NCBI RefSeq assembly: GCF_003966335.1
Contig: NZ_CP034549.1
Coordinates: 2,790,001-2,822,000, forward strand
Source of the DNA: Nonlabens ponticola
GTDB taxonomy: Bacteria; Bacteroidota; Bacteroidia; Flavobacteriales; Flavobacteriaceae
Length of the DNA: 32,000 nucleotides
Direction of reading: 5' to 3'
The translations under genes and the position numbers were made by a program. The notes beneath the pieces were generated by a model, which worked only from the letters and a program-made list of their open reading frames with translations, was not told the origin of the DNA and searched no databases. How positions within the stretch are numbered: position 1 is the first letter of the stretch; each line of letters opens with the position of its first letter. Positions 2,551 through 32,000 of the stretch are shown here, piece after piece.

Positions 2551-2564
2551 GCTTTCGCGAAAGC
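2551..2564. repeat. iterated palindrome GCTTTCGCGAAAGC, copy 1 (intergenic)
   Basis: Exact 14-mer, 21 nt after the asnB stop. Extended palindrome CGCTTTCGCGAAAGCG. Confidence 0.95.
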
Positions 2565-2569
2565 GTAAT

Positions 2570-2577
2570 TATCTTTA
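2570..2577 (+). promoter_or_regulatory. candidate -7 promoter box (TATCTTTA, imperfect)
   Basis: 7/8 match to TAnnTTTG, 7 nt upstream of the trp leader ATG. The his leader shows the same spacing. Confidence 0.25.
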
Positions 2578-2584
2578 CACTTCA

Positions 2585-2638
2585 ATGCAAGAAAGAACTC
2601 AAAACTGGTGGTGGTACAACATAGCTCAACAGCCGTGA
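2585..2638 (+). CDS. trpL: trp operon leader peptide (MQERTQNWWWYNIAQQP)
   Basis: 17-codon ORF with three consecutive TGG codons (2606-2614), followed by a terminator and trpE. Confidence 0.75.
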   Translation: MQERTQNWWWYNIAQQP

Positions 2639-2662
2639 AGTCACCCGTATGTTTAAATACAA

Positions 2663-2689
2663 AGGTCTGCTTTACGGCAGGCCTTTTTT
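2663..2689 (+). terminator. trp attenuator terminator
   Basis: AGGTCTGC (2663-2670) pairs with GCAGGCCT (2677-2684), followed by a T-run (2684-2689). GCCGTGAAG (2632-2640, spanning the leader stop codon) can pair with CTTTACGGC (2670-2678) as an antiterminator. Confidence 0.75.
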
Positions 2690-2721
2690 GTTTTAATCTT
2701 TTATTGCACTAATAAATAATC

Positions 2722-4122
2722 ATGTTCAAACCTATAACAACACATAAAAATATCCTGGCAGACACGTTGACGCCAGTAGGTATTTACATGCGGTTGAGAG
2801 ACAAGTATCCAGGTAGTATTCTATTGGAGAGTAACGAGTACGGCAGTCGCAGCAACAGCTATTCCTTTATTTGTTGTAATCCAGTAGCTAGTCTCAATAT
2901 CGACCAGAATTTCATAAGTATGAGCTATCCAGACGGCAGCTCTCATGAACAAGAATTTGATTTGTCCTATGATCTAGCTCGTGGTCTAGAAAAATTTAAA
3001 GATCAATTCTATAGGGATGATAATGAGTTTTCATTTCCTACTAATGGACTGTTTGGATACCTTACGTATGACGCGGTTCAATTATTTGAAAATATCAAAT
3101 TTGACCCTAGTAAAATTGAAACTGATGCCATACCCATGGTCAACTATCAGGTATTTCAAAATGTATTGGTTTTTGACCACTATCACAATCAGCTATATGT
3201 ATTTGACCATGCATATAATGGTGCAGATTCTAAGATGGAATCACTTGTGGACACGATAGAACATCGCGATATTGCTCGGTACAGTTTCAATACCACGCAA
3301 GCTGAACAGTCAGAGATGCAAGATCAAGATTTTAAAAATCTTGTAGCCAAGGGCAAGCAACATTGTCAGCGTGGTGATGTTTTCCAGATCGTCGTCTCAC
3401 GCAAGTTCTCGCAATCCTATAAGGGCGATGATTTCAATGTCTACAGGCAATTAAGAGCGATCAACCCTAGTCCTTATCTATTCTATTTTGATTACGGGAA
3501 CTTTAGAATATTTGGATCCTCGCCAGAGGCTCAAATATTGATCAATGACGATACTGCCAGCATTCAGCCTATCGCAGGAACCTACAAGCGTACAGGAGAT
3601 GATGCCGCAGATTTGCAAGCAGCAAATGACCTTAAAAAGGATCCTAAAGAAGCAGCAGAACATATCATGCTCGTTGATCTGGCTCGCAATGACCTAAGCA
3701 GACATGCTCGCGATGTACAGGTAACAGATTATCAAAATATTCATTTTTATTCTCATGTAATTCATATGGTGAGTACGGTTACAGGCAAAGTAGCGCAAGA
3801 AGATCGTATGGACTTGATAGGCGACACGTTTCCTGCTGGAACATTGAGCGGTGCGCCTAAATATCGCGCCATGCAATTAATCGATGGTCTAGAAAAAAGC
3901 GCTCGGCAATTTTATGGTGGTGCAATAGGATACTTAGGATTTGACGGTAGCCTTAATCACGCCATCATCATTAGAACTATACTATCACAAAATAATACCA
4001 TGTTTTACCGTGCTGGTGCTGGAGTTGTGGTCGACAGCAATCTGGATAGTGAAAATCAAGAAGTTTATAACAAAACCAACGCTTTAAGAAAAGCTATAGA
4101 ACAAGCAAATGAAACAGTTTAA
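2722..4122 (+). CDS. trpE: anthranilate synthase component I
   Basis: 466 aa. N-terminal LLES Trp-feedback motif. Chorismate-binding C-terminal domain (GTLSGAPK, GGAIGY). Confidence 0.95.
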   Translation: MFKPITTHKNILADTLTPVGIYMRLRDKYPGSILLESNEYGSRSNSYSFICCNPVASLNIDQNFISMSYPDGSSHEQEFDLSYDLARGLEKFKDQFYRDDNEFSFPTNGLFGYLTYDAVQLFENIKFDPSKIETDAIPMVNYQVFQNVLVFDHYHNQLYVFDHAYNGADSKMESLVDTIEHRDIARYSFNTTQAEQSEMQDQDFKNLVAKGKQHCQRGDVFQIVVSRKFSQSYKGDDFNVYRQLRAINPSPYLFYFDYGNFRIFGSSPEAQILINDDTASIQPIAGTYKRTGDDAADLQAANDLKKDPKEAAEHIMLVDLARNDLSRHARDVQVTDYQNIHFYSHVIHMVSTVTGKVAQEDRMDLIGDTFPAGTLSGAPKYRAMQLIDGLEKSARQFYGGAIGYLGFDGSLNHAIIIRTILSQNNTMFYRAGAGVVVDSNLDSENQEVYNKTNALRKAIEQANETV

Positions 4123-5170: not shown

Positions 5171-6163
5171 ATGAAAGAGATTTTGAATGAGTTGTTTGAT
5201 CATAAGACGCTTTCGCGAAAGCGTGCTCACGACATACTTACAGCCATAACAGCTGGTGAAGTCAATGATGCACAGATCGCCGCATTTCTTACCGTGTACG
5301 GAATGCGCAGCGTGACAGTGGATGAGCTCGCTGGTTTCCGCGATGCTATGCTGGAGCAGGCTTTGCTTATTGATCTAACCAAATACAATCCTATTGATTT
5401 ATGTGGTACTGGCGGCGATGGCAAGAACACTTTTAATATCAGTACACTAGCAAGCTTCGTTACTGCTGGTGCTGGAGTGAAAGTTGCCAAACACGGTAAT
5501 TATGGAGTAAGTTCTGTAAGCGGTTCTAGTAATGTAATGGAATCCATGGGTTTCAAGTTTACCAATGATTTTGAAACGCTGGAAAGGCAAATTGATCAAG
5601 CGAATATATGTTTCCTGCACGCTCCCTTATTTCACCCTGCGATGAAAGCAGTAGCACCAATTAGAAGAGCACTCGGAATCAAAACATTTTTCAATATGTT
5701 GGGTCCACTTGTAAATCCAGCAAGACCCAAATTACAAAGTGTTGGTGTTTTTAATTTGCAATTAGCGCGCAACTATGAATATCTGTTCCAAAATGAAGAA
5801 GGAAAACGATATGCTATCCTGCATGCACACGACGGTTATGACGAGGTGAGTTTGACGGGAAAAACAAGAGTTGCTGGTAACAATGGTGTGGTAGACTTAA
5901 AACCAGCAGACTTCAACTTAAATAAATTGACGCTGGAACAAATTGCTGGTGGCGAAACCGTTGAAGACGCAGCTGCCATCTTCAAAAATGTATTGGAAAA
6001 TAAGGCTACAGAGGCTCAAAAATCAGTCGTAATAGCAAACGCGGCAACCGCTATCGCTGTGGCTCAAGAAGTTTCACTTGTTGAAGCAGTTGGTAAAGCA
6101 AGAACATCATTAGAATCTAGCAAAGCGCTGGAATGCTTCAATAAATTACTGGAATTACAATAA
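5171..6163 (+). CDS. trpD: anthranilate phosphoribosyltransferase
   Basis: 330 aa. GTGGDG PRPP-binding motif and KHGN motif. Confidence 0.95.
   Translation: MKEILNELFDHKTLSRKRAHDILTAITAGEVNDAQIAAFLTVYGMRSVTVDELAGFRDAMLEQALLIDLTKYNPIDLCGTGGDGKNTFNISTLASFVTAGAGVKVAKHGNYGVSSVSGSSNVMESMGFKFTNDFETLERQIDQANICFLHAPLFHPAMKAVAPIRRALGIKTFFNMLGPLVNPARPKLQSVGVFNLQLARNYEYLFQNEEGKRYAILHAHDGYDEVSLTGKTRVAGNNGVVDLKPADFNLNKLTLEQIAGGETVEDAAAIFKNVLENKATEAQKSVVIANAATAIAVAQEVSLVEAVGKARTSLESSKALECFNKLLELQ
5209..5222. repeat. iterated palindrome copy 2 (inside trpD, read as LSRK)
   Basis: Exact 14-mer. Extended palindrome ACGCTTTCGCGAAAGCGT. Confidence 0.95.
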
Positions 6164-6250: not shown

Positions 6251-7054
6251 GTGGAAGACATACTGAAAAAGATTACTGACCGCACCAAAGCAGATCTAAT
6301 GATCAGGAAGCAGAATACCTCACTTTCAGATCTTCGAGCTATGGAAAACTATTCTCGTGAGACCATATCATTTCACGACGGAATAAAATACGGTAGTGGT
6401 ATAATCGCAGAGCACAAAAGACAAAGCCCATCCAAAGGTTCTTTTAAATGCCCAGCAAGCCTTGAGGATATCGTCAAGGGTTATGAGGCTGCTGGTGCCA
6501 GTGCTATCAGTTGTTTGACTGATGAGCCTTTTTTTGGAGGTACTTTAAAAGATCTTCAAGAGGCTAGAACTCATGTTGACATTCCTATCCTGCGCAAAGA
6601 TTTTATGGTCGATCTATATCAGGTACACGAGGCACGCGCTTATGGCGCCGATGCTATATTACTCATCGCGGCCTGCTTAAATGACGAGGAACTTATCACA
6701 CTGTCTGCAGAGGCTATAAATCTTGATTTGGATATTCTATTCGAGGTTCACGATCTGGAAGAACTTAACCGAGTCAAGAAAGTAGTCAAAGACTTTAAAT
6801 CCAGCTCTTATGTCATAGGTGTCAATAATCGCGATTTGAAAAAATTTAAGACTGATATTCAAATAAGCAAAGACTTATTAGAGCACTTCCCTAAGAAAGC
6901 GCTGGCCATCAGCGAGAGTGGTATTTCAGGTCCAGAAGTGGTTCAAGAGTTGCAAGATTTAGGTTATCGCGGTTTTCTCATTGGTGAGAATTTCATGAAA
7001 ACTAACGATCCTGGACGCAGCTGTGCCAAGTTTATAAAAGCGACGACGCTATGA
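6251..7054 (+). CDS. trpC: indole-3-glycerol phosphate synthase
   Basis: 267 aa from a GTG start. IAEHKRQSPSKG motif. 4-nt overlap with trpF. Confidence 0.92.
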   Translation: MEDILKKITDRTKADLMIRKQNTSLSDLRAMENYSRETISFHDGIKYGSGIIAEHKRQSPSKGSFKCPASLEDIVKGYEAAGASAISCLTDEPFFGGTLKDLQEARTHVDIPILRKDFMVDLYQVHEARAYGADAILLIAACLNDEELITLSAEAINLDLDILFEVHDLEELNRVKKVVKDFKSSSYVIGVNNRDLKKFKTDIQISKDLLEHFPKKALAISESGISGPEVVQELQDLGYRGFLIGENFMKTNDPGRSCAKFIKATTL

Positions 7055-7689
7055 TGATCAAAGTTTGCGGCATGCGAGAAACGAGCAATATCGATGAACT
7101 ACAACAACTCGATATTGATTTTATGGGCATCATCCGCTATCCTAAAAGCAAGCGGTATGTTGACGATCAGCAAAAGGCTGCCATTGAGCAATGCACGATG
7201 AATAAAGGCACCGTTGGCGTTTACGTCAATGCGTCCCTACAAGACATCTTGCAGGATATCATTCCCTTACAGATGGATGTTGTACAGTTGCACGGTGATG
7301 AGGATTCCGCTTTCGCGAAAGCATTACTAGAATTAGACATCAAGGTATTTAAGGCATTTCAAATTACCGATGACTTTGACTTTGATATTCTGAAAGATTG
7401 GGAACAACTAGCTGAAGCCTATCAAGGAAAATTATTTTTCCTATTTGACACAGCAACCAAAAATTATGGCGGCAGCGGCAAGAAATTTAATTGGCAATTA
7501 CTCGACAACTATCAAGGAATGGTGCCTTTTCTATTAAGCGGTGGCATTGCGCCAGATGATGCAGAGTCCATTAAGAATATCAAACACGACATGTTTCTGG
7601 GAGTGGATCTCAACTCGCGATTTGAGGACGAGCCAGGAATTAAAAATATCAAAGCTATCAAAGGCTTTGTTGAAAAATTGAGAAAATGA
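7051..7689 (+). CDS. trpF: phosphoribosylanthranilate isomerase
   Basis: 212 aa. N-terminal IKVCGM motif. Overlaps trpC and trpB by 4 nt each. Confidence 0.9.
7309..7322. repeat. iterated palindrome copy 3 (inside trpF, read as AFAKA)
   Basis: Exact 14-mer with a GATTCC 5' flank. Confidence 0.95.
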
Positions 7690-9662: not shown

Positions 9663-9676
9663 GCTTTCGCGAAAGC
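9663..9676. repeat. iterated palindrome copy 4 (intergenic)
   Basis: Exact 14-mer, 15 nt after the trpA stop. Extended 20-bp palindrome TACGCTTTCGCGAAAGCGTA (9660-9679). Confidence 0.95.
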
Positions 9677-9702: not shown

Positions 9703-9750
9703 ATGAATAACAACGCAACACATCACCATCATTTTGACACTTACCTGTAG
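9703..9750 (+). CDS. hisL: his operon leader peptide (MNNNATHHHHFDTYL)
   Basis: 15-codon ORF with four consecutive His codons (9721-9732), followed by a terminator and hisG. Confidence 0.75.
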   Translation: MNNNATHHHHFDTYL

Positions 9751-9790: not shown

Positions 9791-9817
9791 AACCCGTCTA
9801 TTTCAGGCGGGTTTTTG
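9791..9817 (+). terminator. his attenuator terminator
   Basis: CCCGTCT (9793-9799) pairs with AGGCGGG (9805-9811), with one G-U pair, followed by TTTTT. Confidence 0.7.
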
Positions 9818-9818: not shown

Positions 9819-9924
9819 ATTTCTGCGCAGGCAGAAATCTCTGACTCGGGAAACCTGAAGCGACCGAATCAGATGAAAACAATAGTTTCATGATTTTCCC
9901 CTTTGGGGAAATGTCCGCAGGACA
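9819..9924 (+). repeat. train of five back-to-back hairpins in the hisG 5' region
   Basis: ATTTCTGC-GCAG-GCAGAAAT (9819-9838). TCTGACTCGG...CCGAATCAGA (9840-9873). ATGAAA...TTTCAT (9873-9891). TTTCCCC-TTT-GGGGAAA (9895-9911). TGTCC-GCA-GGACA (9912-9924). Confidence 0.7.
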
Positions 9925-9945
9925 ATGGGGCCAATAATAAAAATT

Positions 9946-10797: not shown

Positions 10798-12092
10798 TGG
10801 AAATCGTACTCAACCCATCTACGAGCCAGCAGGCTAGTTTATTGGAGAGACCGATGAAACAAAGGTCTGAAGTGGATAGCGCTGTAAAAGACATTATCCG
10901 ACTCGTGCGCGATAATGGCGATCAGGCATTGATTGCATTTGCACAGCAATTTGACAACGCCACCATTACAGATTTGAGAGTCTCTGCTCAAGAAATTACC
11001 GCGGCAGCTGCTCAAGTTCCAGCAGATTTGAAATCTGCAATCCAGACAGCCTACGACAACATCTATAAGTTTCACCAGGCTTGTTTTACTCGTGAATATC
11101 CAGTAGTAGAAACCATGCCTGGCATGACGTGCTGGAGAAAATCATTGCCTATTCAAAAAGTAGGATTGTATATTCCTGGAGGCTCGGCACCGCTGTTCTC
11201 GACAGTTTTGATGCTGGCAGTACCTGCAAAAATTGCTGGAAACAAGCAAGTAGTCCTTTGTAGCCCAACGGATGAGCATGGAAATATAAATCCAGTGGTT
11301 CTGTACACCGCAAGTCTTTGTGGCGTCACAGAGATCTATAAAGTTGGCGGTGCTCAGGCGATCGCTGCCATGACACACGGCACGCAAAGCGTTCCAGCGG
11401 TACACAAGATTTTTGGTCCTGGTAATGCTTTTGTCACTAGAGCAAAAGAATTGGCACAGCAGCAAGGTGTCGCGATCGACATGCCGGCTGGACCTAGCGA
11501 GGTTTTGGTCATTGCAGATCAACACGCTAATCCAGAATTCGTGGCTTCAGACTTGTTAGCTCAAGCAGAACACGGTCACGATTCCCAAGTAATTCTACTT
11601 ACAGATTCTGAGAAACTTGCTAAGGATGTAGACGATGCAGTAAAGTCTCAAATAAGCACGCTTTCGCGAAAGCAAACTGCCGAAGCTGCCCTGCAGAATA
11701 GTAGAACTATCGTGTTACAAAGCATTACAGAATGTGTAGCCTGGTCTGATGTATATGCACCAGAGCACTTAATTATCAACACACAAGATGCTGAGGCAGT
11801 AGCAAATCAAATCGAAGTAGCTGGCTCCATATTTATAGGTTCTTACACTTGTGAGAGCTTGGGCGATTATGCCAGCGGCACCAATCATACCTTGCCTACT
11901 TACGGTTATGCAAGGAATTACAGCGGTGTGTCTGTCGATAGCTTTGTCAATAAAGTGACCTACCAGAAAGCGACCGCTCATGGGTTACAAAACCTAGGTC
12001 CTGCTGTTGAAATCATGGCAGCCGCCGAAGGTCTGGATGCGCATAAAAATGCGGTGAGTGTAAGATTAAAAAGTTTAGAAAATAACGATTAG
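10797..12092 (+). CDS. hisD: histidinol dehydrogenase
   Basis: 431 aa. QAEHG motif. Start overlaps the hisG stop. Confidence 0.95.
   Translation: MEIVLNPSTSQQASLLERPMKQRSEVDSAVKDIIRLVRDNGDQALIAFAQQFDNATITDLRVSAQEITAAAAQVPADLKSAIQTAYDNIYKFHQACFTREYPVVETMPGMTCWRKSLPIQKVGLYIPGGSAPLFSTVLMLAVPAKIAGNKQVVLCSPTDEHGNINPVVLYTASLCGVTEIYKVGGAQAIAAMTHGTQSVPAVHKIFGPGNAFVTRAKELAQQQGVAIDMPAGPSEVLVIADQHANPEFVASDLLAQAEHGHDSQVILLTDSEKLAKDVDDAVKSQISTLSRKQTAEAALQNSRTIVLQSITECVAWSDVYAPEHLIINTQDAEAVANQIEVAGSIFIGSYTCESLGDYASGTNHTLPTYGYARNYSGVSVDSFVNKVTYQKATAHGLQNLGPAVEIMAAAEGLDAHKNAVSVRLKSLENND
11660..11673. repeat. iterated palindrome copy 5 (inside hisD, read as LSRK)
   Basis: Exact 14-mer. Confidence 0.95.
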
Positions 12093-13386: not shown

Positions 13387-14496
13387 ATGAAAAAAGTATT
13401 ATTTATAGATCGCGACGGGACCATCGTCAAGGAGCCGCCAACTGATTATCAGCTGGATAGTTTTGAGAAGCTGGAGTTCTTGCCTATGGCAATTACCCAA
13501 TTGCACCGTATTGCACGAGAGTTGGATTATGAGCTGGTAATGGTGACCAATCAGGACGGTCTGGGAACGGATAGCTTCCCTGAAGATACCTTCTGGCCAG
13601 TGCATAATTTGATGATGGACATTCTTGAAAAAGAAGGCGTGACATTTAGTGAGGTTTTGATTGATCGTTCTTTTCCAGAACAGAACGCACCGACTCGCAA
13701 ACCTCAAACTGGTTTGTTGACACACTATATTAAAGGCGACTATGACCTTGCCAACAGCTTTGTCATAGGCGATCGCAACAGCGATATGCAGCTCGCCAAA
13801 AATTTGAGCTGCAAAGGAATTCAGCTGCCATCGATTACAGACGACACGACTTTTGAAGACGAATTGGTTGTTTTAAAAACCGATTCTTGGAAAGATATTT
13901 TTCAGTTTTTAAAAGGTCAACCGCGCAAAGTATCGGTAAGCCGTAAAACCAATGAAACCGATATCAACATCACGCTCAATCTGGACGGCTCTGGAAACGG
14001 AACGATAGATACAGGTTTGAAATTCTACGATCACATGCTGGAGCAATTGCAGCGCCATGGTTCGCTGGACTTGGATATCAAAGTGAACGGTGATCTGGAA
14101 ATCGACGAGCACCACACCATTGAGGACACCGCTATTGCGCTAGGTGACGCTTTCGCGAAAGCGTTATCCTCTAAAAAAGGGATTAATAGATATGGGTTTT
14201 TGTTACCTATGGACGACTCATTGGCCAAAGTAGCAATTGATTTTGGCGGAAGACCATGGATCGTTTGGGAAGCAGAATTTAAAAGAGAATACGTGGGCGA
14301 TATGCCAACCGAATTGTTTTTCCACTTTTTCAAATCCTTCAGCGATGCAGCAAAGTGTAACTTGAATATGAAAGTGGAAGGCGACAATGAGCACCACAAA
14401 ATTGAGTCGCTGTTCAAAGCTTTTGCGAAAGCGATAAAAATGGCAGTCAAACAAACAGGTGACGGTAAATTACCTAGCACTAAAGGCACATTATGA
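13387..14496 (+). CDS. hisB: bifunctional histidinol-phosphatase / imidazoleglycerol-phosphate dehydratase
   Basis: 369 aa. N-terminal HAD motif FIDRDGT. C-terminal IGPD domain ([24 protein letters not shown]). Confidence 0.95.
14149..14162. repeat. iterated palindrome copy 6 (inside hisB, read as AFAKA)
   Basis: Exact 14-mer. Extended palindrome ACGCTTTCGCGAAAGCGT. Confidence 0.95.
14419..14432. repeat. decayed palindrome copy GCTTTTGCGAAAGC (inside hisB)
   Basis: 13/14 match. The single C->T change is at the first C of the central CGCG. Read as AFAKA. Confidence 0.6.
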
Positions 14497-17726: not shown

Positions 17727-17800
17727 TGACCTCGACAGGATTCAAACCTGTAACCCTCAGAGCCGAAATCTGATGCGCTATTCAGTTGCGCCACGAGGCC
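17727..17800 (-). tRNA. tRNA-Arg (anticodon TCG)
   Basis: Manual cloverleaf fold of 74 nt. 7-bp acceptor stem with one G-U. D stem GCGC/GCGC. Anticodon stem TCAGA/TCTGA with loop TTTCGGC. 5-nt variable loop. T stem ACAGG/CCTGT. CCA is not encoded. Confidence 0.85.
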
Positions 17801-23611: not shown

Positions 23612-23638
23612 GTGGCTAACTGTTTTTGGGTTAGTACG

Positions 23639-23652
23639 CTTTCGCGAAAGCT
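23639..23652. repeat. iterated palindrome copy 10 (intergenic)
   Basis: Exact 14-mer, 8 nt downstream of the hydroxylase stop on the minus strand. Confidence 0.95.
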
Positions 23653-23660: not shown

Positions 23661-25316
23661 TTAACTCTCTAACAACTCATCAATTTCAGAGATCAACAAC
23701 CACTGTTCTGCGTGATTGTTTTGAACCTCATCTCGCAATTTGCGCAACGTATCGTCATTGATCTTGTCTTCTTCCCTATAATGACGCACCTTTTTATAAA
23801 GTTCTTGTAGCGATTGTTCTTTCTTGCTTATGGGGTTTTTGGCGGTCGTTGTCTCGCTCTCATGGTAGATTAAATCAAAGCTGTGATAGTCTGCAGGACC
23901 AGCGTAGGCGCTCACGATATCCTTGCCCACCGCTAGATTGAGCACGCCGTCGACCGGCGAGAACAGTACTTCATCCTTGTAGGTGATTGTACAATCTGTA
24001 AACTGTATCAACATGAGCTTGCCGTTGAGATTGCGCATTCCCGTGATGTTCAATCCTTCTACACGTATGCCGCTCTCATAGGTAAATTCAATGCGCTCGT
24101 TGTCATAAAAATTATAAGCTTGTAAATCTCGCGGCCCCATATCCTCAATTGCAAGATTGATACCTTTGAGTTTACCTACTGGCGATAAAAATCCTTGATG
24201 ATGAGTCGCTGTACCATGTCCTATGAGTTCTTTCTCACGGTAGGCGAGTGCAGTTTTTCCCGTTGTCTCAAAGAAGATTACTTCTTGATCCTCATTTTTA
24301 ATCATCCTGGTAAACACGCCAGAAACCTGTAGCCCAGTACTTAATTCAATAGTTCCCAGACTTTTTGAATCAATGAGCTTTTGCAATCCACGATGACCGC
24401 CTTTGCGCACTGCCATGGTATTGGCAAACTCTTCCAGCACCTCGCTCAAATGAGCAAAGTTGGGTGTGACATAAAGATGTGGTTGCTTGCGTGTGATGTC
24501 AAAATCCTGGTAGGCTGCATCAATGCTGTAAGATCGTTTCTCGACTTCAGGCTCCAAGCAGCTCTTGCTCTCACCTATGCTGGAAAGTAGTCCAGCACCG
24601 TATAATTTAGGATCTTCTAGCGTTCCTATCAATCCATACTCGACCGTCCACCAGTGCAGGTTACGTATGAGCGCCATTTCACTGGGCTCCACTTTTTTAT
24701 TTTGCAGCTCATCAACCAGATTCTCTGCCTGTTCTATTTGATTCTTAAGATCGTTGTCATTCTCGCCGGATCGTTGTTCTTTAAGTATCGACAGCCGGCG
24801 CACCGCTTCATACATCTCATGATCGTGTGCGCTAGAGATTGCCTTGCTACCTATCTCACCAAAACGTCTTAAATACTCCGCATAATCTGGACTGGCGATG
24901 ATAGGTGCATGACCAGCAGCCTCGTGAATGATGTCAGGTGCTGGCGTATATTCAATATTTTCAAACTTGCGTATGTCTGCCGCGATTACCAGAATCTTAT
25001 AGGCTTGAAATTCCATAAAAGCTGCTGGTGGTATAAATCCATCTACGGCAACGGCAGCCCAGCCTATCTCCTTGAGAATACGATTCATTCCATACATTGA
25101 TGGAATTTCCTCGATGGATATTCCCGTTTTGCGAAGTCCAGCCATGTAGGATCCATGCGCTACCTGGGATAGATACTCTACATTCTTACGCATCACGTGT
25201 CGCCATACCGCTTGATCCTGTGCGGTATATTCCTCATAATTTTGCGGCTTGATAAACTGCTTGAGATGCGGTGGCAACCGCTCAATAAGTGGATTGCTGG
25301 GTATTTTCTTATCCAT
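23661..25316 (-). CDS. aromatic amino-acid hydroxylase (phenylalanine-4-hydroxylase-like), long form
   Basis: 551 aa. Iron ligands HEAAGH plus TVEYGL, and the YGAGLLSS motif of biopterin-dependent hydroxylases. An extra C-terminal domain of roughly 250 aa has no fold I recognise. Confidence 0.8.
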   Translation of the reverse strand: MDKKIPSNPLIERLPPHLKQFIKPQNYEEYTAQDQAVWRHVMRKNVEYLSQVAHGSYMAGLRKTGISIEEIPSMYGMNRILKEIGWAAVAVDGFIPPAAFMEFQAYKILVIAADIRKFENIEYTPAPDIIHEAAGHAPIIASPDYAEYLRRFGEIGSKAISSAHDHEMYEAVRRLSILKEQRSGENDNDLKNQIEQAENLVDELQNKKVEPSEMALIRNLHWWTVEYGLIGTLEDPKLYGAGLLSSIGESKSCLEPEVEKRSYSIDAAYQDFDITRKQPHLYVTPNFAHLSEVLEEFANTMAVRKGGHRGLQKLIDSKSLGTIELSTGLQVSGVFTRMIKNEDQEVIFFETTGKTALAYREKELIGHGTATHHQGFLSPVGKLKGINLAIEDMGPRDLQAYNFYDNERIEFTYESGIRVEGLNITGMRNLNGKLMLIQFTDCTITYKDEVLFSPVDGVLNLAVGKDIVSAYAGPADYHSFDLIYHESETTTAKNPISKKEQSLQELYKKVRHYREEDKINDDTLRKLRDEVQNNHAEQWLLISEIDELLES

Positions 25317-25318: not shown

Positions 25319-25945
25319 ATGCGTGAGTTGGCTCAAAGCTACTTTAAAAAAGATACTTTCGCATCATATCTTTACCACGTGACCCATCGCCAAAAGCAAA
25401 TTTTTAAGACCGCAGCCGTGCTTTTTAAAGAACGCGGTTACAGCGCCGTGACCATGCGTGATGTCGCGGCAGCTATGAATATCAAGGCAGCAAGCTTGTA
25501 CAATCACATATCTGGGAAACACGAGATTTTAGCCAGCCTTGTTCTTGAGGTGGCTCATAAGTTCTCAAGTGGTATGCATGCAGTACGGTTGGATGGTGAT
25601 TCCGCTTTTGCGAAAGCTGAAAAACTTATAGATCTACACATACAAATTGCCGTTGATCATACAAATGCACTCGCGGTTCTCAATACTGACTGGATGCATC
25701 TAGAGGGCAAGACATATGAGGAATACATCGCTTTGCGCAAAAAGTATGAGCAGGATTTTAAAGAAATTCTAGAACAAGGGATAGCCAGTAGTGAATTTAA
25801 AAAGATGAATGTGGATACTATGCTTTTCAATCTTCTCAGCACATTGCGATCCATTTACCTATGGATACCAAAAAAATCGACCACGCAAGTGGCCGATTTA
25901 AAGAATGAACTTCCTGTCATCTTGTTGACTGGAATAAGTAACTAG
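25319..25945 (+). CDS. TetR/AcrR family transcriptional regulator
   Basis: N-terminal HTH (AVTMRDVAAAMNIKAASLYNHI). ATG 25319 lies 2 bp from the divergent hydroxylase start, so in-frame GTG 25379 is a plausible true start. Confidence 0.85.
   Translation: MRELAQSYFKKDTFASYLYHVTHRQKQIFKTAAVLFKERGYSAVTMRDVAAAMNIKAASLYNHISGKHEILASLVLEVAHKFSSGMHAVRLDGDSAFAKAEKLIDLHIQIAVDHTNALAVLNTDWMHLEGKTYEEYIALRKKYEQDFKEILEQGIASSEFKKMNVDTMLFNLLSTLRSIYLWIPKKSTTQVADLKNELPVILLTGISN
25604..25617. repeat. decayed palindrome copy GCTTTTGCGAAAGC (inside the TetR gene)
   Basis: 13/14 match with the same C->T change as 14419. The 26-nt block 25597-25622 matches the ftsZ copy (reverse complement of 31645-31670) with 1 mismatch. 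Confidence 0.75.
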
Positions 25946-27054
25946 TTTGCTTTTTGCTCTTCTAGCGTTGGGTAATCTGTGTAGCCTTCACGACCTGTAC
26001 TGTAGAAAGTTTCTTGATTCCAGTCAGCGGTTTCTGCCTTGAGTTCAAAACGGTGTACGAGATCTGGATTTGAGATAAACAGCTTGCCGTAAGCGACACA
26101 ATCTGCATGACCACTCTCAATTACGGCATTACCTGATTCTCTATCAAACTCGTTGTTTATCATCAAATTGCCATCATACATGGGTCTAAAGTGTTGGGCA
26201 ATGTCAGTCACTAGAAAATCAACATCGCTCACATCTGTAAATGGCTCGCTCAAATGAATATAAGCTAGTTTGTGTGGGTTCAATCTTTTGATCAAATACT
26301 CAAAAAACGGAATGGTATCAGGCGTCGCCTCGATTCCAAAAGTGCCGTGCAGCGATGGATTGAATCGGCAGCCTATGTGACCTTCAGGGAAATGTTGTTT
26401 TACGGCATCTAATACCTCAAAGAAAAAGCGTGCTCTATTCTCGTGAGAACCACCATACTTGTCGTCTCTCAAGTTTGCATTCTTATTGAAGAACTGATGA
26501 ATTAAATACCCATTAGAACTATGAATTTCTACACCATCAAATCCAGCGCGGTAGGCTCGTCCAGCGGCATCACCAAAACTCTCTACCACCATTTGAATTT
26601 CTTCATAGGTCATCGCGTGTGGTTCTACCGTTTGTTGCTTATCGCCTTTAGGGCCGCGCATTTCTGCATTAGGGTTGACTGCGCTTGGTGCCCACGGTTT
26701 TTTACCATCATGAAAGTCTGGTAGCGACATTCTACCTACATGCCATAACTGTAAGAATATTTTACCACCTTCATCGTGCACACTGTCAACCACACGTTTC
26801 CAACCAGCTTCTTGCTGGTCGTTGAAGATTCCTGCGACGTTGTAATAACCTCTTGCGCCGCGAGCAACCTCGCTACCTTCAGTAATAATGAGACCAGCGC
26901 CAGCGCGCTGAGTGTAGTAATCTACATGCTTTTGTTCTGGAGATTGGTGTTCATTATCGGCACGACATCTGGTCATGGGTGCCATGATGACGCGATTCTT
27001 AAGTTTTACGCTTCCTAGACTTATGGGTTGTAGTAATGGTTGATCTATGCTCAT
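25942..27054 (-). CDS. NADH:flavin oxidoreductase, Old Yellow Enzyme family
   Basis: APMTRCRA and HSSNGYLIHQF motifs. The ORF is open to 27099, but MSIDQPLLQP (ATG 27054) fits the family N-terminus. The stop overlaps the TetR stop by 4 nt (convergent genes). Confidence 0.88.
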   Translation of the reverse strand: MSIDQPLLQPISLGSVKLKNRVIMAPMTRCRADNEHQSPEQKHVDYYTQRAGAGLIITEGSEVARGARGYYNVAGIFNDQQEAGWKRVVDSVHDEGGKIFLQLWHVGRMSLPDFHDGKKPWAPSAVNPNAEMRGPKGDKQQTVEPHAMTYEEIQMVVESFGDAAGRAYRAGFDGVEIHSSNGYLIHQFFNKNANLRDDKYGGSHENRARFFFEVLDAVKQHFPEGHIGCRFNPSLHGTFGIEATPDTIPFFEYLIKRLNPHKLAYIHLSEPFTDVSDVDFLVTDIAQHFRPMYDGNLMINNEFDRESGNAVIESGHADCVAYGKLFISNPDLVHRFELKAETADWNQETFYSTGREGYTDYPTLEEQKAN

Positions 27055-27162
27055 GTTTTTTATTTTCAAGTTAAGCCAGCCATAAGCGATGTATGCCAAT
27101 CTAGCGTTAAACGCAGCCTTTGTAATTGTTAAGGTAATTCTGGTAATCTCGTACGCACGGAT

Positions 27163-27402
27163 TTAGGTCATCTGTGGACGATACCTATAACAATGCACGA
27201 TCATAAGTATCTTAATGTTTGAAAACAATCCACGATACATAAAGGTAGAGATGGAAATACTTTTAAAAAGAAAGCCGCCATCACGAGACATATCATGCTC
27301 TTGATGTTTAACATCGATGTACCGAAAAATTGACGAATTCATTTGGTAAAGGTTTGCTGTCTTAAAACACCAGGCTTGAAAAGACTGGCAGCGTATTTGC
27401 AA
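27163..27402 (-). pseudogene. MFS transporter C-terminal fragment (truncated paralog of 28533-29879)
   Basis: GGFLFKSISISTFMYRGLFSNIKILMIVHCYRY aligns with GGILFETITTYTFLMGGGLFLIITILMIVHRYRH of the intact gene. The 28-nt block 27184-27211 is 27/28 identical to 28581-28608. No N-terminal part is present. Confidence 0.65.
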
Positions 27403-27429
27403 AAAGGAGCGCGACGAGGATCTAAATTT

Positions 27430-27455
27430 AATCCTACTATGGTCACGAATGAATA
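27430..27455 (+). repeat. inverted, diverged copy of the tRNA-Arg 3' end plus its flank
   Basis: AATCCT-ACTAT-GGTCACGAATGAATA compared with the minus-strand sequence AATCCT-GTCGA-GGTCACGAATGAATA at 17717-17742. The 15-mer at 27441-27455 is the exact reverse complement of 17717-17731. Confidence 0.55.
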
Positions 27456-27900
27456 TTTCAATAGTGATAGAAAACTCGTTTTCACACTGAACCTAAAATC
27501 TTTTTTTTCTATCACAAACTTGACAGTCATAAATAAGAGTAGATCTTGTGACACTACTGAGAGTGTGGCTTGCTTACGGCATTTAATAAATTTTAACAAC
27601 TTTATTAAATAAATTGTTAGTTCCTACTAACAATGCACTTGCTATAGCAAATGGAGACATGTTGATTCATACCTTATCAACTTTATGAATGATAACCATC
27701 CAGTACGTATTCTAAAGAAAAAATTGCTGACTATAGATAAAGTACTGTTTACCAGTATTTTAACCAATGATAATAATATCGATAAAAGTTATGTATCGTG
27801 TTGAAAAACTTGCTTAAACGCGTATTATATCGATAAATTAGTTTTCAACGAATTGTAAAAAATCAAATACTATATCATTGTAAATCAGAAGATAAGATGT

Positions 27901-28482
27901 ATGAAGTATATAGCTAAATTATTCTTTATTGCTGTTATGACGACTAATGCACAAGTTGGCATCAACACATCAACACCACAAGAATCCCTGCATGTAGCAG
28001 GTACAGTGCGCATAGAAACAACAAATCAAGCTTCGGTGAAGACTACAAAGCTTTTTGGACTTAATGATGACGGCACGTTGAGAGAAATAGAGGTAGGAGA
28101 AAACTTAGTGCTTACTAATAATGTCCTGCACGCAAGACCTTATGATCATTCATTTGGGCAAATAAATTTGACCGTAAAAGATAATAACAATGTGGACCTA
28201 TTACTCGACCCAGGAGAGGCCAACTTTGGAAAAACAATAATAAGAGTGAACAATTCTTCAGGTGAATCTCAAATTACAGGCTTCACAGATGGCTACGATG
28301 GACAGCATATTTGGCTTTATGCAGTCTCTGGAACTCTAAAACTAATTCCCAACGATACTGGTTCCAGCAATGGTAACCAGATTGAAGTCAATGAAAAACC
28401 TGCTGCAAAATTGTGGGCTATGATTGAAGTAATTTATGATGGTACCCGTGGCAAATGGATTATAATGCAGAGTCATGCTTAA
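27901..28482 (+). CDS. hypothetical secreted protein
   Basis: 193 aa. Signal peptide ending in AQ-VGINTSTPQESLHV, an N-terminal pattern I recall from uncharacterised Bacteroidota surface proteins. No catalytic motif recognised. Confidence 0.6.
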   Translation: MKYIAKLFFIAVMTTNAQVGINTSTPQESLHVAGTVRIETTNQASVKTTKLFGLNDDGTLREIEVGENLVLTNNVLHARPYDHSFGQINLTVKDNNNVDLLLDPGEANFGKTIIRVNNSSGESQITGFTDGYDGQHIWLYAVSGTLKLIPNDTGSSNGNQIEVNEKPAAKLWAMIEVIYDGTRGKWIIMQSHA

Positions 28483-28532
28483 TAATGCATTCAGGTAATT
28501 AGTTATTTGAAAGGATTAAGGCTGCTTGAATT

Positions 28533-29879
28533 TCATGTTACAACTACATCAGCGGTCTCCGTCTTAAGATCATCCTTATGCCTATAACGATGCACGATCA
28601 TAAGTATCGTGATAATCAAGAATAATCCACCACCCATAAGAAAGGTGTAGGTAGTTATGGTCTCAAAAAGAATACCACCCATGACCAGGCCTATCATGCT
28701 GGCGATGCTGCCCATGGATGTTCCAAAACCTTGAATGGTTCCTTGCGTTTTCTTAGTTCCTGTAGCCGACAATAAGCTCAAGAAACTAGGCCACATCAAT
28801 CCGTTACCTATGGATAGAATGGTGTTAGCTACATAGAGCATGACGATACTCTCAAAAGTCAATAAACTAAAACTGATGGCTAGACATAGTGATCCAATCA
28901 AAACTAATGTGTGACTGTTGATACGCTTGGAAAGCCAATTTAAAATTGGACCTTGTACCACCACCATGATCAAACTAGAATAAGCTAGAAAAATTCCTAG
29001 TTCAATTGCTGTCCAATCCAGCAAGGTATTTGCATAAATCGGCAGCCCAGCATAAAACAGACTGAACGCAAAAAAGGTCAAAAAGTAAATACTGAACAGC
29101 AGCGGTATTCCAGATATTTTGATGATTCTTTTGAAAGCAACAGCATCTTCATCTTGCTGCTCTTCTTCACCTTCGGTATAACAGTCTTTATGTTCTACCT
29201 GAAAAAATCTTCTGATATTTCTCAGGCTTATTTTTCTGGTATCTACCGCGCATGGATTGCTTTCTTCAAGCCTGTAATGGATCACGAAGATTGCAATCAA
29301 TGAGATGATTGCGGCTATGATGATGGGTAGCAACTCCTCAAGAAATGTTGTGGCTAACAATCCTGCCACCGCTGGTCCTAAGACAAATCCCAAGCTGGTG
29401 CTGGCGCCCATCTTCCCAAAATTTGAATTGCGATTCTCGTCATCAGAGATATCAGAGAGATAGGCATTTGCTACAGATACATTGCCACCGGTAAAACCAT
29501 CAAAGATCCTTGCGATAAAAATCACGATCAGCGGCAAGGTCATCACATAGTTTCCAGTAATTTCTGATTCTTGTGACCATAGGTCTGTTTCTGGAAGCAA
29601 GAAGGCTAGGATGAACAAAGACCAGGCGAGAAAAGTTCCTGCCTGCGAGATGATCAAAACCTTCTTACGCCCTATGCGGTCTGATAATTTTCCTAAAATA
29701 GGTGCACCTATAAACTGAAAAAACGGATACATCGCACCTAGAATCCCGTAAATAAAACCATTGCCGCCAAAGTCTGTAACAATGTAAATGAGAATAGGAA
29801 TAACAACACTATAGCCTAATATCCCAATAAAATTGACCATTAAAATCGGGAAGATCTTTGACCTTAATAATGATGCCAT
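28533..29879 (-). CDS. MFS transporter (drug:H+ antiporter-like)
   Basis: 448 aa with about 12 hydrophobic segments. MFS motif A GKLSDRIGRKK. Acidic central loop. Confidence 0.88.
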   Translation of the reverse strand: MASLLRSKIFPILMVNFIGILGYSVVIPILIYIVTDFGGNGFIYGILGAMYPFFQFIGAPILGKLSDRIGRKKVLIISQAGTFLAWSLFILAFLLPETDLWSQESEITGNYVMTLPLIVIFIARIFDGFTGGNVSVANAYLSDISDDENRNSNFGKMGASTSLGFVLGPAVAGLLATTFLEELLPIIIAAIISLIAIFVIHYRLEESNPCAVDTRKISLRNIRRFFQVEHKDCYTEGEEEQQDEDAVAFKRIIKISGIPLLFSIYFLTFFAFSLFYAGLPIYANTLLDWTAIELGIFLAYSSLIMVVVQGPILNWLSKRINSHTLVLIGSLCLAISFSLLTFESIVMLYVANTILSIGNGLMWPSFLSLLSATGTKKTQGTIQGFGTSMGSIASMIGLVMGGILFETITTYTFLMGGGLFLIITILMIVHRYRHKDDLKTETADVVVT

Positions 29880-29952
29880 AAAGCGTGTACTTGACCTTAA
29901 AGATACTCATTGTCAGAGTGAGCTAATCAACCTTGCAAAAAGGTAAAACTAG

Positions 29953-30216
29953 TTATCTATCTTTTAATTCCTCAAGGTATTTGTGCCATACCTTTTCTGC
30001 TTCTTTCATGTCATCATTGCGATGTGGATGATGCTTGGAACGCTGTTCCATGGTAACACAAATTTGCTTGCCATGCGCGAGATCGATCTCTCCTTCATCG
30101 AGCAGTCTCTCAACTTTTTCCACGCTTTCTTCGGCTTTTTCTTTATCCTTGAAGCCTAAGCCTTCGACGGTGCTTGCTGGGTTATCGTCTGTGTAAAGGT
30201 TTTCTGATTTTGACAT
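29953..30216 (-). CDS. small conserved hypothetical protein
   Basis: 87-aa charged, helical ORF with no competing frame. Family uncertain. Confidence 0.55.
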   Translation of the reverse strand: MSKSENLYTDDNPASTVEGLGFKDKEKAEESVEKVERLLDEGEIDLAHGKQICVTMEQRSKHHPHRNDDMKEAEKVWHKYLEELKDR

Positions 30217-30293
30217 TTTTTATTTTCAAGCTACAAACAAACCCAAAATCTGAACTTCTACTTTTCAGACATTTAACGTGAGGCAATAAAAAA

Positions 30294-30314
30294 GGCCTCT
30301 GAAATTCAGAAGCC
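30294..30314 (-). terminator. intrinsic terminator after yqeY
   Basis: Minus strand GGCTTCTGAA-T-TTCAGAGGCC, with one G-U pair, followed by TTTTTT (plus-strand A-run 30286-30293). Confidence 0.7.
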
Positions 30315-30336
30315 CTTATCACTTTACTTGTTCGAT

Positions 30337-30786
30337 CTATGAATTCAGTTTTTGCTTGACGATGGTGCTTATCGTGCGACCATCTGCCTTACCTGCCAGC
30401 AATTGATTTGCTCTGCCCATGACTTTACCCATGTCTTTCATTCCATTAGCACCAGTTTCATCTATGACTTGTTGCACGACTGTAGCAATCTCGTCTTCAG
30501 ACATTTGCTCTGGTAGGAATTGCTCTAGTACTGCAGCTTGCGCTAGCTCTGGTTCTGCGAGATCATTGCGGTCTTGCTCAGTAAAGATTCTTGCGCTGTC
30601 TTTTCGTTGTTTTACCAACTTCTGGACGAGTTTTATCTCTTGCTCTTCACTTAACTCTGCCGCGTCACCCGATGTTTTAGCAAGCAATAGCTCACTCTTT
30701 ACAGCTCTTAGTGATGCAAGCGCTACTTGATCCTTACTTTTCATGGCCTCTTTCAAGGCTGTCATGACTTTCTTTTCTAAACTCAT
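30337..30786 (-). CDS. yqeY: GatB/YqeY domain-containing protein
   Basis: 149 aa. An N-terminal KEAMKSKD...LR.VKSE pattern and the length are typical of the YqeY family. Confidence 0.85.
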   Translation of the reverse strand: MSLEKKVMTALKEAMKSKDQVALASLRAVKSELLLAKTSGDAAELSEEQEIKLVQKLVKQRKDSARIFTEQDRNDLAEPELAQAAVLEQFLPEQMSEDEIATVVQQVIDETGANGMKDMGKVMGRANQLLAGKADGRTISTIVKQKLNS

Positions 30787-30823
30787 TTCTTCAATTTCTA
30801 ATTATTAGCAACAATCAAATACA

Positions 30824-32000
30824 TCAATCTGGATTGTCGTGCAAAAAGGAATTATTGTTAGATCGCAACTGGATCTCATTGTTCTCATCAGTATTCAAGG
30901 TGGTTCTTGAGATCGAGGTTCCCGATGGATTCTCGTCTAGCTCTACACCATGACGCTGAAATGCAGGCTTGCTTTCAAGCTCTTCTAACCTGTGTGTTGA
31001 TTTAAACTTGAAGTTATAGGCATGCATTTTTCTCTTGCGCTCTTCCGCTCTCAATTTCAACACCTCATTGATAGGCATCTCAGTTGGATCTAATTCTTGA
31101 TCAACAGGTTGAATTGTGGCTGGCGCAGGTGCTTCTGTGACCTTTTTGGTCATGATTTCAACCTCAGCTTGCTCATTTTTTGTTGGCTGTGCTGCGTTCA
31201 AGTTTTCCTCAACTTCCATGTAATCGTCTAGTGAGTACTTGCGTATTCCATCATCGGAAACCTCGGTCACTGGGATCACTTCAACGGCATCATTGACCTC
31301 GATATCCTCTAATTGGTAGGTGATTTTATCTTCTGGTGCATTTGCGTTCTCATCCTCATGCAGCGGCATATCAAAGTCAAAAAGGATTTGTTCCTTTACC
31401 TCAATTTGATCTTCTTCCTGTGGCTGCGTTGCTACTGGTTCTTCTTCTCTTATCGTATAATTGATGGCATCTTGATCCAGCACCTCATCATAAACGACGT
31501 TCAGATTCTTGATAAATTCAGTCGTTGGGATCAATGGATTTTCCATGACTGGTGGCATGATCTCTTCTGGCTCTTCATCGCCTAGCTCGTGCAATATGAT
31601 GACTGGTTCCTCGACCTTTTTTATTGGTTGTGATGGTTGTGGTGTTTCAGCTTTCGCGAAAGCGGAATCATCAACATTATCTTCTTCCTGATCGTCTTGA
31701 TCCATAATCAATTTGCCTGGTTGCACGTTGCCATTACCGTTGTCCAACACCTGTGTGGTGCGCTGCTCTTCTTCCAGCGTGTGGATGATGCGACGCGTCT
31801 CTGTATTTGATATCTCATTTTGCTGTTCTGCATCAAAGCCTGTGGCAATAACAGTCACCGCGATGGCATCACCTAATGATTCTTCCTCGCCTACACCCAT
31901 GATGATGTTTGCGCCGCCGCCGGCCTCGTTCTGGATATGCTCGTTGATCTCACCTATCTCGTCAATTGTGATCTCCTCAGTTCCAGAAACAATGAGTAGC
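30824..32000 (-). CDS. ftsZ: cell division protein FtsZ (3' part; 5' end lies beyond the window)
   Basis: The frame is open to the window edge. It reads ...EITIDEIGEINEHIQNEAGGGANIIMGVGEEESLGDAIAVTVIATGF, then a roughly 300-aa acidic linker and a conserved C-terminal peptide (NNSFLHDNPD). Confidence 0.92.
   Translation of the reverse strand, partial: LLIVSGTEEITIDEIGEINEHIQNEAGGGANIIMGVGEEESLGDAIAVTVIATGFDAEQQNEISNTETRRIIHTLEEEQRTTQVLDNGNGNVQPGKLIMDQDDQEEDNVDDSAFAKAETPQPSQPIKKVEEPVIILHELGDEEPEEIMPPVMENPLIPTTEFIKNLNVVYDEVLDQDAINYTIREEEPVATQPQEEDQIEVKEQILFDFDMPLHEDENANAPEDKITYQLEDIEVNDAVEVIPVTEVSDDGIRKYSLDDYMEVEENLNAAQPTKNEQAEVEIMTKKVTEAPAPATIQPVDQELDPTEMPINEVLKLRAEERKRKMHAYNFKFKSTHRLEELESKPAFQRHGVELDENPSGTSISRTTLNTDENNEIQLRSNNNSFLHDNPD
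31650..31663. repeat. iterated palindrome copy 11 (ftsZ linker, read as AFAKA)
   Basis: Exact 14-mer. Confidence 0.95.

Follow-up and report, generated by a model that had tools for sequence, protein, structure and literature searches.

Introduction

The function of the highly iterated palindrome HIP1 of cyanobacteria (GCGATCGC) has stayed unexplained for three decades. To our knowledge, the uptake signal sequences (USS) of the Pasteurellaceae and the DNA uptake sequences (DUS) of the Neisseriaceae are confined to these two proteobacterial families. Here we analyze a 32,000-nucleotide stretch of the chromosome of Nonlabens ponticola, a flavobacterium (NCBI RefSeq assembly GCF_003966335.1, contig NZ_CP034549.1, positions 2,790,001 to 2,822,000 of the forward strand; hereafter the window), which contains the trp and his biosynthesis genes and, dispersed through genes and spacers, a 14-bp perfect palindrome, GCTTTCGCGAAAGC (hereafter the word), and we compare this word with the systems just named.

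Campylobacter jejuni, for its part, discriminates transforming DNA according to whether a short palindrome in it is methylated. HIP1 occurs in excess of expectation, its copies are spaced non-randomly, and it is conserved both within genes and between them (PMC5861425). Its deviating forms concentrate their changes at the outer bases, and a ratchet of methylation-linked repair has been proposed by Elhai to explain its abundance (PMC4390886). More recently, methylated HIP1 was found to boost natural transformation (bioRxiv 10.1101/2024.09.10.611283), and a role as an uptake sequence has been suggested for it (bioRxiv 10.64898/2026.06.24.733823). In the case of USS, even distribution is the expected outcome of a molecular drive fed by uptake, and the sequences are depleted in constrained coding DNA (PMC7811141). 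The spacing of DUS matches the length of conversion tracts, and many new DUS arise via recombination rather than by point mutation (PMC2397512). Among the Flavobacteriaceae, natural competence together with a preference for self DNA is reported for Riemerella columbina (PMC7965970).

An earlier reading of the window, made from its letters only (the sequence-only reading), pointed out the palindrome, named HIP1 and USS/DUS as its nearest analogues and did not recognize it as a described element. Literature searches support the last point: among open-access papers and preprints they found no description of it and nothing relevant on the sequence, on palindromes of Nonlabens, or on iterated palindromes in Flavobacteria or Bacteroidetes. 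What the sequence-only reading overlooked is the regular spacing of the word, its genus-wide distribution, and the mini-hairpin octamer GCGAAAGC that makes up the 3′ half of each strand.

Results

A sequence search of the window finds 11 exact copies of the word, starting at 2551, 5209, 7309, 9663, 11660, 14149, 16497, 18784, 20961, 23638 and 31650; the start of the tenth had been given as 23639, the only coordinate in need of correction. Two further copies, at 14419 and 25604, carry the same single change (GCTTTTGCGAAAGC), and the window contains none with two mismatches. Markov models of order 1 to 5 trained on the window predict between 1e-5 and 2e-4 exact copies, an order-5 model trained with the copies included predicts 0.15, and dinucleotide shuffles of the window yield 0.07 matches at up to two mismatches, so the iteration is far beyond chance, as had been claimed.

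The HisF encoded in the window is 100% identical to that of N. ponticola. The same trp/his locus was taken from other public assemblies and copies were counted per ~21 kb. The word recurs in N. marinus (10 exact copies), Nonlabens sp. YIK11 (11 exact), N. dokdonensis and N. xiamenensis (each with seven exact and one one-mismatch copy), N. antarcticus (three exact, two one-mismatch), a Nonlabens-like metagenome-assembled genome (L324; eight exact, one one-mismatch), a more distant relative (L325; two exact, two one-mismatch) and four strains of N. ulvanivorans (six exact copies each, with a single one-mismatch copy in strain L327). Nine Nonlabens-type genomes hold 65 exact copies in 199 kb of trp/his loci, an observed-to-expected ratio (O/E) of ~5.6e4. 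Not one exact copy is found at the same locus in the 80 other Bacteroidota species listed (1.43 Mb), nor in the closest outgroup (L326, with 68% HisF identity). A metagenome scan adds ~105 low-GC marine contigs with the word, 42 of them with at least two copies. The search of relatives that the sequence-only reading had called for thus shows a word that is clade-wide in Nonlabens, and the presence of the word in frame at orthologous positions, in independent assemblies of at least nine genomes and in many metagenome contigs, excludes an adaptor or assembly artefact.

The word is also found on tailed-phage contigs. A viral scan with the bare 14-mer returns mostly single chance matches in high-GC contigs, and only low-GC contigs with several copies are informative. 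Five such IMG/VR contigs (L094, L119, L122, L058 and L041) hold two to three copies, 3.6-6.5 kb apart. The genes recognized on the word-bearing contigs in PHROG searches are those of tailed-phage structural modules (portal, head protease, major head and tape measure), and related contigs keep the word at the same places.

Copies are spaced far more evenly than random placement would produce. The first nine gaps in the window measure 2658, 2100, 2354, 1997, 2489, 2348, 2287, 2177 and 2677 bp (coefficient of variation 0.10); no run of nine gaps as regular was seen in 400,000 random placements, and the chance that no gap falls below 1997 bp is likewise small (P=1.8e-5). All six orthologous loci are under-dispersed by the Greenwood statistic (combined P=0.00025), as are independent metagenome contigs (P=0.001 for contigs with at least three copies, P=0.045 for those with at least two), where only 6 of 67 gaps are shorter than 1 kb. 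Degenerate copies also keep away from exact ones, at a median distance of 1.9 kb, compared with 1.0 kb for random positions (P=4e-6). The sole close pair, 270 bp apart in hisB, is intact at both sites in N. marinus, YIK11 and L324; one member has decayed in N. ponticola, and in N. dokdonensis, N. antarcticus and N. xiamenensis one member has three synonymous mismatches. Copies therefore exclude each other over ~1-2 kb and form a quasi-regular lattice, with the word recurring roughly every 2-3 kb across the genus. In the window, a 6 kb part (25618-31649) has no copy of the word.

Comparison of orthologs shows that the word was written into existing DNA by substitution. Protein and codon alignments contain no indel at the hisF, hisD, trpF and two hisB sites. 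At the second HisB site the peptide FKAFAKAIK is ancestral across Bacteroidota, and it is encoded either by the exact word (GCT TTC GCG AAA GC) or with three synonymous differences (GCA TTT GCA AAA GC). The site is exact in N. marinus, YIK11, N. xiamenensis and L324 and differs by the three synonymous mismatches in N. dokdonensis and N. antarcticus, while the N. ponticola copy (14419) is a single C-to-T decay. At the first HisB site (14149), (A/V)F(S/N)KA in the outgroup became AFAKA in Nonlabens, and N. xiamenensis has three synonymous differences (GCC TTT GCC AAA GC). At the HisD site, LPRK is conserved in outgroups; N. xiamenensis retains its proline along with a one-mismatch form, GCTTCCGCGAAAGC, and LSRK and the exact word go together in the remaining species. 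At two hypervariable places, a loop of HisC and the linker between HisI and HisE, other small palindromes stand in place of the word or interrupt it, so that some gains and losses are patch replacements. The word is thus not inserted; it is written by substitution, sometimes by short-patch replacement in variable protein loops, and arises where a spacer or the encoded peptide (AFAKA, LSRK or FRES) tolerates it. This bears out the earlier view that the copies do not behave like insertions of miniature inverted-repeat transposable elements (MITEs) or repetitive extragenic palindromic (REP) sequences. A further candidate role, as a mark of insertion or synteny breakpoints ahead of the his leader, was rejected because the breakpoints lie tens of bases off the word.

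Once written, the word is kept. In comparisons of species with 72-80% identity in their aligned DNA, the word is unchanged at 40-100% of its sites, as against 1-7% of other aligned 14-mers, a 10-30-fold difference. Among the four N. ulvanivorans strains (96-97% identical, with 5.7% of columns variable), none of the five aligned copies varies. A force on the DNA itself maintains the word, since synonymous positions are fixed and conserved residues have been replaced.

For the analysis of sequence variation we used a combined set of 221 exact copies, in which genes outside the window were called by a simple longest-open-reading-frame (ORF) heuristic. The set contains 24 copies with one mismatch and 22 with two, and exact copies outnumber one-off forms by ~9:1. 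In half of the two-mismatch forms an outer dinucleotide is simply missing, and 12 of the 24 one-mismatch variants are C-to-T or G-to-A changes at CpG positions. Compensatory double changes inside the word, which would reveal selection for a hairpin, are nearly absent, with only 1 of 24 symmetric and pairing-preserving. When the word is masked in the nine genomes, TCGCGA (O/E 1.3), TTCGCGAA (1.0) and CGCG (0.8) are at background, and lone octamers, either GCGAAAGC or GCTTTCGC, are only two- to three-fold enriched. The enriched unit is therefore the whole 14-mer rather than a 4-8-bp enzyme site, and the earlier idea that the CGCG/TCGCGA core is a methyltransferase target is weakened.

The flanks carry additional, weaker information. 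In the combined set C is preferred at -1 and G at +1, with T-rich and A-rich positions at ±3 and ±4 (TTNC-word-GNAA), and positions ±2 show a weak complementarity that reaches significance within loci (P=0.006). Species differ in the flank they favour: TAC...GTA in N. ponticola, TTC...GAA or TCC...GGA in others. The extended consensus ACGC...GCGT read earlier from the window is borne out only in part (C at -1 in 9 of 11 exact copies, A at -2 in 7, G at +1 in 6 and T at +2 in 5). Folded as DNA or RNA, the core reaches only -2 kcal/mol, and with its flanks -7 to -13 kcal/mol. The full 14-mer and its weak symmetric flanks point to recognition of the duplex by a sequence-specific and probably dimeric protein.

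In the combined set 132 copies are coding and 89 lie in spacers (60% coding) although 87% of the DNA is coding, which is a ~4-fold enrichment in spacers. Spacer density is equal whatever the orientation of the adjoining genes (tandem 0.83/kb, convergent 0.78/kb, divergent 0.70/kb), and no spacer carries two copies. Coding copies read AFAKA in 79 cases, RFRES in 27 and LSRK in 26. A rule suggested by the window, that the word is never read in the F-R-E-S frame, is refuted by the 27 of 132 coding copies that are.

Individual copies in the window were placed by ORF and Pfam calls, which agree with the earlier assignment of the exact copies to unrelated housekeeping genes (trpD, trpF, hisD, hisB, hisF, a BNR gene twice and an FtsZ-like gene) and three spacers. 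The first spacer copy (2551-2564) is 21 nt past the stop of an asparagine-synthase gene (865-2529) and 20 nt before the ATG of the trp leader (2585). The second (9663-9676), 15 nt past the trpA stop and 26 nt before the ATG of the his leader (9703), is kept before the his leader in all six Nonlabens examined (N. ponticola, N. marinus, YIK11, N. dokdonensis, N. xiamenensis and N. antarcticus), and the third (23638-23651) is 9 nt past the stop of an aromatic-amino-acid-hydroxylase-like gene on the minus strand (23661-25316). Within the trp operon, the copy at 5209-5222 occupies codons 13-18 of trpD (5171-6163, plus strand), where it reads T-LSRK-R in phase 2, and the copy at 7309-7322 reads AFAKA in trpF (7051-7689), with the orthologous site exact in N. 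marinus and N. xiamenensis. In the his operon the word reads T-LSRK-Q in hisD (11660-11673), AFAKA in hisB (14149-14162; exact in five of six species) and T-LSRK-L in hisF (16497-16510), which shows no indel relative to outgroups, whose residues vary here. The second hisB copy (14419-14432), 270 bp from the first, has the synonymous change C6 to T. A remnant copy lies in the inter-domain linker of hisIE (17035-17073, plus strand), as CGTTTTCC...AAGCGCAAAAGCGAG split by a small hairpin, CCTGCCTCGCCGGCAGG. The splitting insert is 21-27 nt long, holds CCTGCCTCGCCGGCAGG, encodes PASPAGKRK and is present in YIK11 too; at the same site the word is intact (RFRES) in N. marinus and N. dokdonensis.

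The BNR/Sortilin-domain gene (17864-21016, minus strand) contains two exact copies, one reading P-LSRK-R (18784-18797) and the other AFAKA at codons 15-19, in an N-terminal region that resembles a signal peptide (20961-20974). A TetR-family gene (25319-25945) has the one-mismatch form, again C6 to T, reading AFAKA (25604-25617); the N. marinus ortholog is exact. The last exact copy (31650-31663) reads AFAKA in the acidic C-terminal linker of a minus-strand gene that runs past the window edge. This gene is probably ftsZ, a name taken from a motif reading of the upstream in-frame core end (...NIIMGVG...VTVIATGFD) in an ORF with no Pfam hit.

Several other features of these loci were recorded. 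The trp leader MQERTQNWWWYNIAQQP (2585-2638, 2661-2689) and the his leader MNNNATHHHHFDTYL (9703-9750, 9793-9816) belong to classical leader-peptide attenuators, each leader being followed by a hairpin and a T-run, and neither has an Rfam hit. The trp and his promoters (TTACACTT and TTACATTTG boxes) begin 10-11 nt downstream of the copies at 2551 and 9663, so that the -33 region of each operon coincides in part with a copy. The block from the BNR gene to an OYE-family oxidoreductase (window ~17.8-27.1 kb) is inverted relative to N. marinus (L001, 12.1-20.0 kb). A tRNA-Arg(TCG) gene (17726-17800, minus strand) is followed by two partial duplicates of its 3′ end (17499-17510 and 17620-17631; core AATCCTGTCGAG), ~110-120 bp apart, a pattern typical of the attachment-site remnants of integrated elements.

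Other repeats share these genes. A second palindrome with perfect stems, ATCCTGAAAC(G/A)AGTTCAGGAT, is found in frame in hisC (12596-12616) and in the hisIE linker (17074-17094), where it encodes ILK(R/Q)VQDD; other Nonlabens species have the 14-mer (AFAKA) at the hisC site. A dispersed repeat, GGGGAAATGTCCGCAGGACAAT (9905-9926 in the window), has 11 copies in the Nonlabens-like set and none in controls, and also occurs in frame in HisC N-termini (...GKMSAGQ.G...; L001, L003 and L005). The variable loops of Nonlabens HisF, HisC and HisIE are built of recurring peptides, reminiscent of Rickettsia palindromic elements (RPEs). Larger insertions were found as well. Three genomes have a complete Vsr-like DUF559 (PD-(D/E)xK) endonuclease domain fused to the HisD C-terminus, and one has such a domain in frame in the middle of HisH (L003 3447-5153; L005 3281-4972; L324 3035-4858 and 7556-8686); they look like selfish genes inserted in frame. 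Toxin-antitoxin pairs (RES/Xre, PIN/DUF6364), an acetyltransferase and DinB are inserted in the his operon of various species. Finally, TTCGAA is strongly avoided in Nonlabens his/trp loci (the window, L001-L005, L324, L325 and L327), with an O/E of 0.20 as against 0.64 in other Bacteroidota, which suggests a TTCGAA-specific restriction system in the genus; the core of the palindrome can be written TTCG-CG-AA.

Discussion

We are highly confident that the Nonlabens word is a real, clade-wide palindrome, generated by substitution, maintained at the DNA level and mutually excluding, and that it belongs to the class of iterated words that includes HIP1 and USS. Like HIP1 and its alternate forms, it is a perfect GC-rich palindrome that exceeds expectation by orders of magnitude, is dispersed through genes and spacers, originates by substitution, is conserved at its sites far above background, is non-randomly spaced and deviates most at its outer bases. 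The function of HIP1 is debated as well, with methylation, nucleoid structure and transformation all under consideration. Yet the two words are unrelated in sequence, and the host of the present one is a member of the Bacteroidota, not a cyanobacterium. HIP1 is an octamer with an O/E of 15-300, as compared with 14 bp (~20 bp with flanks) and an O/E of ~5e4 here; it reaches one copy per gene or more, as opposed to about one per 2.3-4 kb; and its spacing shows a periodicity of 10-90 kb, where the Nonlabens word shows short-range mutual exclusion. Moreover, the inner 6-8-mers of the Nonlabens word are not enriched by themselves, and no cognate methyltransferase was identified.

The resemblance to USS and DUS is of another kind. 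These are also clade-specific, with ~1,000 copies per genome (a number which for the Nonlabens word is extrapolated), roughly one per 1-3 kb, and a relatively even spacing. They are depleted in constrained coding DNA, show frame bias, have altered proteins to fit, and have gained some copies as replaced patches. Conservation, frame bias and intergenic enrichment all match the HIP1/USS class, and the analogy first drawn with HIP1 and USS/DUS was well chosen. However, USS and DUS are asymmetric 9-12-mers that often form inverted pairs acting as terminators, whereas the Nonlabens word is a single perfect palindrome with no more than one copy per spacer and equal density in divergent spacers. In addition, uptake bias, competence and a receptor have been demonstrated for USS/DUS, while the Nonlabens word is known from sequence alone. 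The word is thus functionally akin to HIP1 and to USS/DUS, yet a member of neither.

The explanation that we tentatively prefer, well short of regarding it as established, is that the word may be a tag of self DNA in uptake or recombination, with a drive that saturates at one copy per fragment. A dimeric protein would recognize a duplex of at least 14 bp, and the word would bias DNA uptake, homologous recombination or both, and spread by the kind of molecular drive invoked for USS/DUS and more recently for HIP1. The self-DNA preference of Riemerella columbina (PMC7965970) lends preferential uptake indirect support only. Recognition may involve methylation of the CGCG core, as in HIP1. If one copy per imported or recombined fragment saturated the benefit, this would explain the even spacing.

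Several points weigh against this explanation. Even spacing and conservation are equally expected of a binding site that structures the chromosome. Established USS/DUS are asymmetric, and the Nonlabens word is palindromic. A word conserved in phage structural modules would not obviously be predicted by a pure uptake drive, unless the modules belong to long-resident prophages. The open-access papers and preprints consulted contain no data on competence, uptake or methylation in Nonlabens. With respect to the numbers, the metagenome loci were chosen because they contain the word, which biases both the densities and the flank statistics taken from them; the his/trp loci, being orthologs, are not independent; and the figure of ~1,000 copies in N. 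ponticola is an extrapolation of the window density over 2.87 Mb.

The word could instead provide a lattice of binding sites for a nucleoid-organizing or partition-type protein (a dimeric helix-turn-helix or ParB/Noc-like protein with a 14-16-bp palindromic site), with selection for spaced anchors and no transmission bias. We consider this unlikely, but it accommodates much of the evidence. Dimeric DNA-binding proteins typically have sites of this form, perfectly palindromic over 14 bp and with weak symmetry in the flanks; under-dispersion and DNA-level conservation are both expected of such sites, and the non-random spacing of HIP1 has been read as a signal of nucleoid structure (PMC5861425). 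Copies in phage structural genes would fit a demand placed on any DNA that replicates in the cell. The known chromosome-organizing sites, namely parS, the Noc-binding site (NBS), the SlmA-binding site (SBS) and matS, are likewise 14-16-bp palindromes, recognized by dimers and located in genes and spacers. These sites and those of known nucleoid-associated proteins, however, number in the tens per genome and are degenerate, the partition and occlusion sites being regionally confined as well, while the Nonlabens word would have about a thousand near-exact copies by extrapolation and ~90% of its recognizable copies are exact. The register of its half-sites also differs, presumably by one base, from that of parS/NBS, and no candidate protein was identified.

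A pure mutational ratchet of the HIP1 type appears quite unlikely. In such a scheme an orphan methyltransferase acting on the CGCG/TCGCGA core, coupled to methyl-directed or very-short-patch-like repair, would turn near-matches into a word that has no function of its own; Elhai's model for HIP1 proposes a ratchet of this kind (PMC4390886). A GC-rich palindrome with such a core in a genome of 41% GC would fit, as would the many C-to-T and G-to-A variants at CpG positions and the two-mismatch forms, which deviate mainly at the outer bases as those of HIP1 do (PMC4390886). Vsr-like DUF559 genes are conspicuous in Nonlabens loci, and copies in phages are compatible with a repair bias that acts on all DNA in the cell. 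Nevertheless, the inner sites TCGCGA, TTCGCGAA and CGCG are at background when the word is masked, and a specificity of at least 14 bp is far beyond that of a type II methyltransferase site. Mutual exclusion of copies is not expected from a repair bias, and the junctions of the DUF559 insertions in hisD and hisH lack the word at up to four mismatches. A regex scan of ~0.85 Mb of sampled DNA, a search of low power, detected no signature of an m5C methyltransferase.

It is also conceivable, if improbable, that the signal is single-stranded. The 14-mer is the most compact duplex that places the mini-hairpin GCGAAAGC on both strands, where it would fold when the DNA is unwound; GCTTTCGC and GCGAAAGC overlapping by GC give exactly the word. 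Folding at the replication fork, on the lagging strand or during DNA entry could exclude single-stranded DNA-binding protein, resist nucleases, position priming or primase, or protect and mark self DNA. The extraordinarily stable mini-hairpin d(GCGAAAGC), described by Hirao and colleagues, has a Tm of 76.5 °C, is nuclease-resistant, lies outside nearest-neighbour parameters and is found at the phage G4/ssiA priming sites (PMC13037366). Its known occurrences are a few priming or promoter sites and engineered oligonucleotides, and not a genome-wide iterated word. The regular spacing, with ~2.3 kb on the scale of Okazaki fragments, and flanks that extend the palindrome, with their weak covariation at ±2, could be taken in its favour. 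On the other side, lone octamers are only two- to three-fold enriched once the word is masked, one-mismatch variants do not follow the published tolerance of hairpin positions (PMC13037366), compensatory double changes are missing inside the word, and the standard fold of the 14-mer is only marginally stable. If this reading were true, the word would represent a new kind of chromosome-wide structural code rather than one more uptake sequence or methylation site.

A role at the level of RNA, as an intrinsic terminator or an mRNA-stabilizing hairpin after genes, is largely refuted. The three spacer copies of the window do lie 9-21 nt past stop codons, and the hairpin reaches -7 to -13 kcal/mol when the flanks are included. 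But most copies are inside genes, the three types of spacer (divergent, convergent and tandem) are equally rich in copies, a U-tract is lacking, the true terminators of the trp and his leader attenuators are separate structures, it is the sequence and not the pairing that is conserved, and the palindrome has no Rfam match, the window giving only a tRNA at the gathering threshold.

The idea that the word is the footprint or miniature of a mobile palindromic element (MITE, REP or RPE) inserted in frame can be dismissed as extremely improbable: although Nonlabens proteins hold other small in-frame palindromic repeats in variable loops, and in hisC and the hisIE linker the word trades places with other palindromes or with indels, length is unchanged at most orthologous sites, origins are synonymous or affect a single codon, indels are restricted to hypervariable loops, no terminal repeats, target duplications or transposase accompany the copies, and 14 bp is too short. 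REP sequences and bacterial interspersed mosaic elements, MITEs and RPEs resemble the word in being short, multi-copy and palindromic, and RPEs also reside in frame within genes, but all of them are inserted, longer and accompanied by indels, and REP sequences are confined to spacers and linked to RAYT transposases.

Whether it acts as a tag of self DNA, as we tentatively prefer, or otherwise, the word constitutes an independent system in a third phylum and a strong comparative test case; it is much longer (28 bits), its copies are near-exact and its spacing rule is unusually clean. Such a system could separate uptake or recombination drive from a methylation-linked repair ratchet, nucleoid anchoring and single-strand structure. 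The length of 14 bp should make the binding protein easy to isolate, and, as DNA with and without the word is trivial to synthesize, the question is directly testable in a cultivable marine flavobacterium. The word is in addition a sharp taxonomic marker of the clade in metagenomes, and it could open the way to transforming Nonlabens and related bacteria. For the biology of these bacteria, the word means that forces acting on DNA override conserved residues even in core enzymes such as HisD and HisB.

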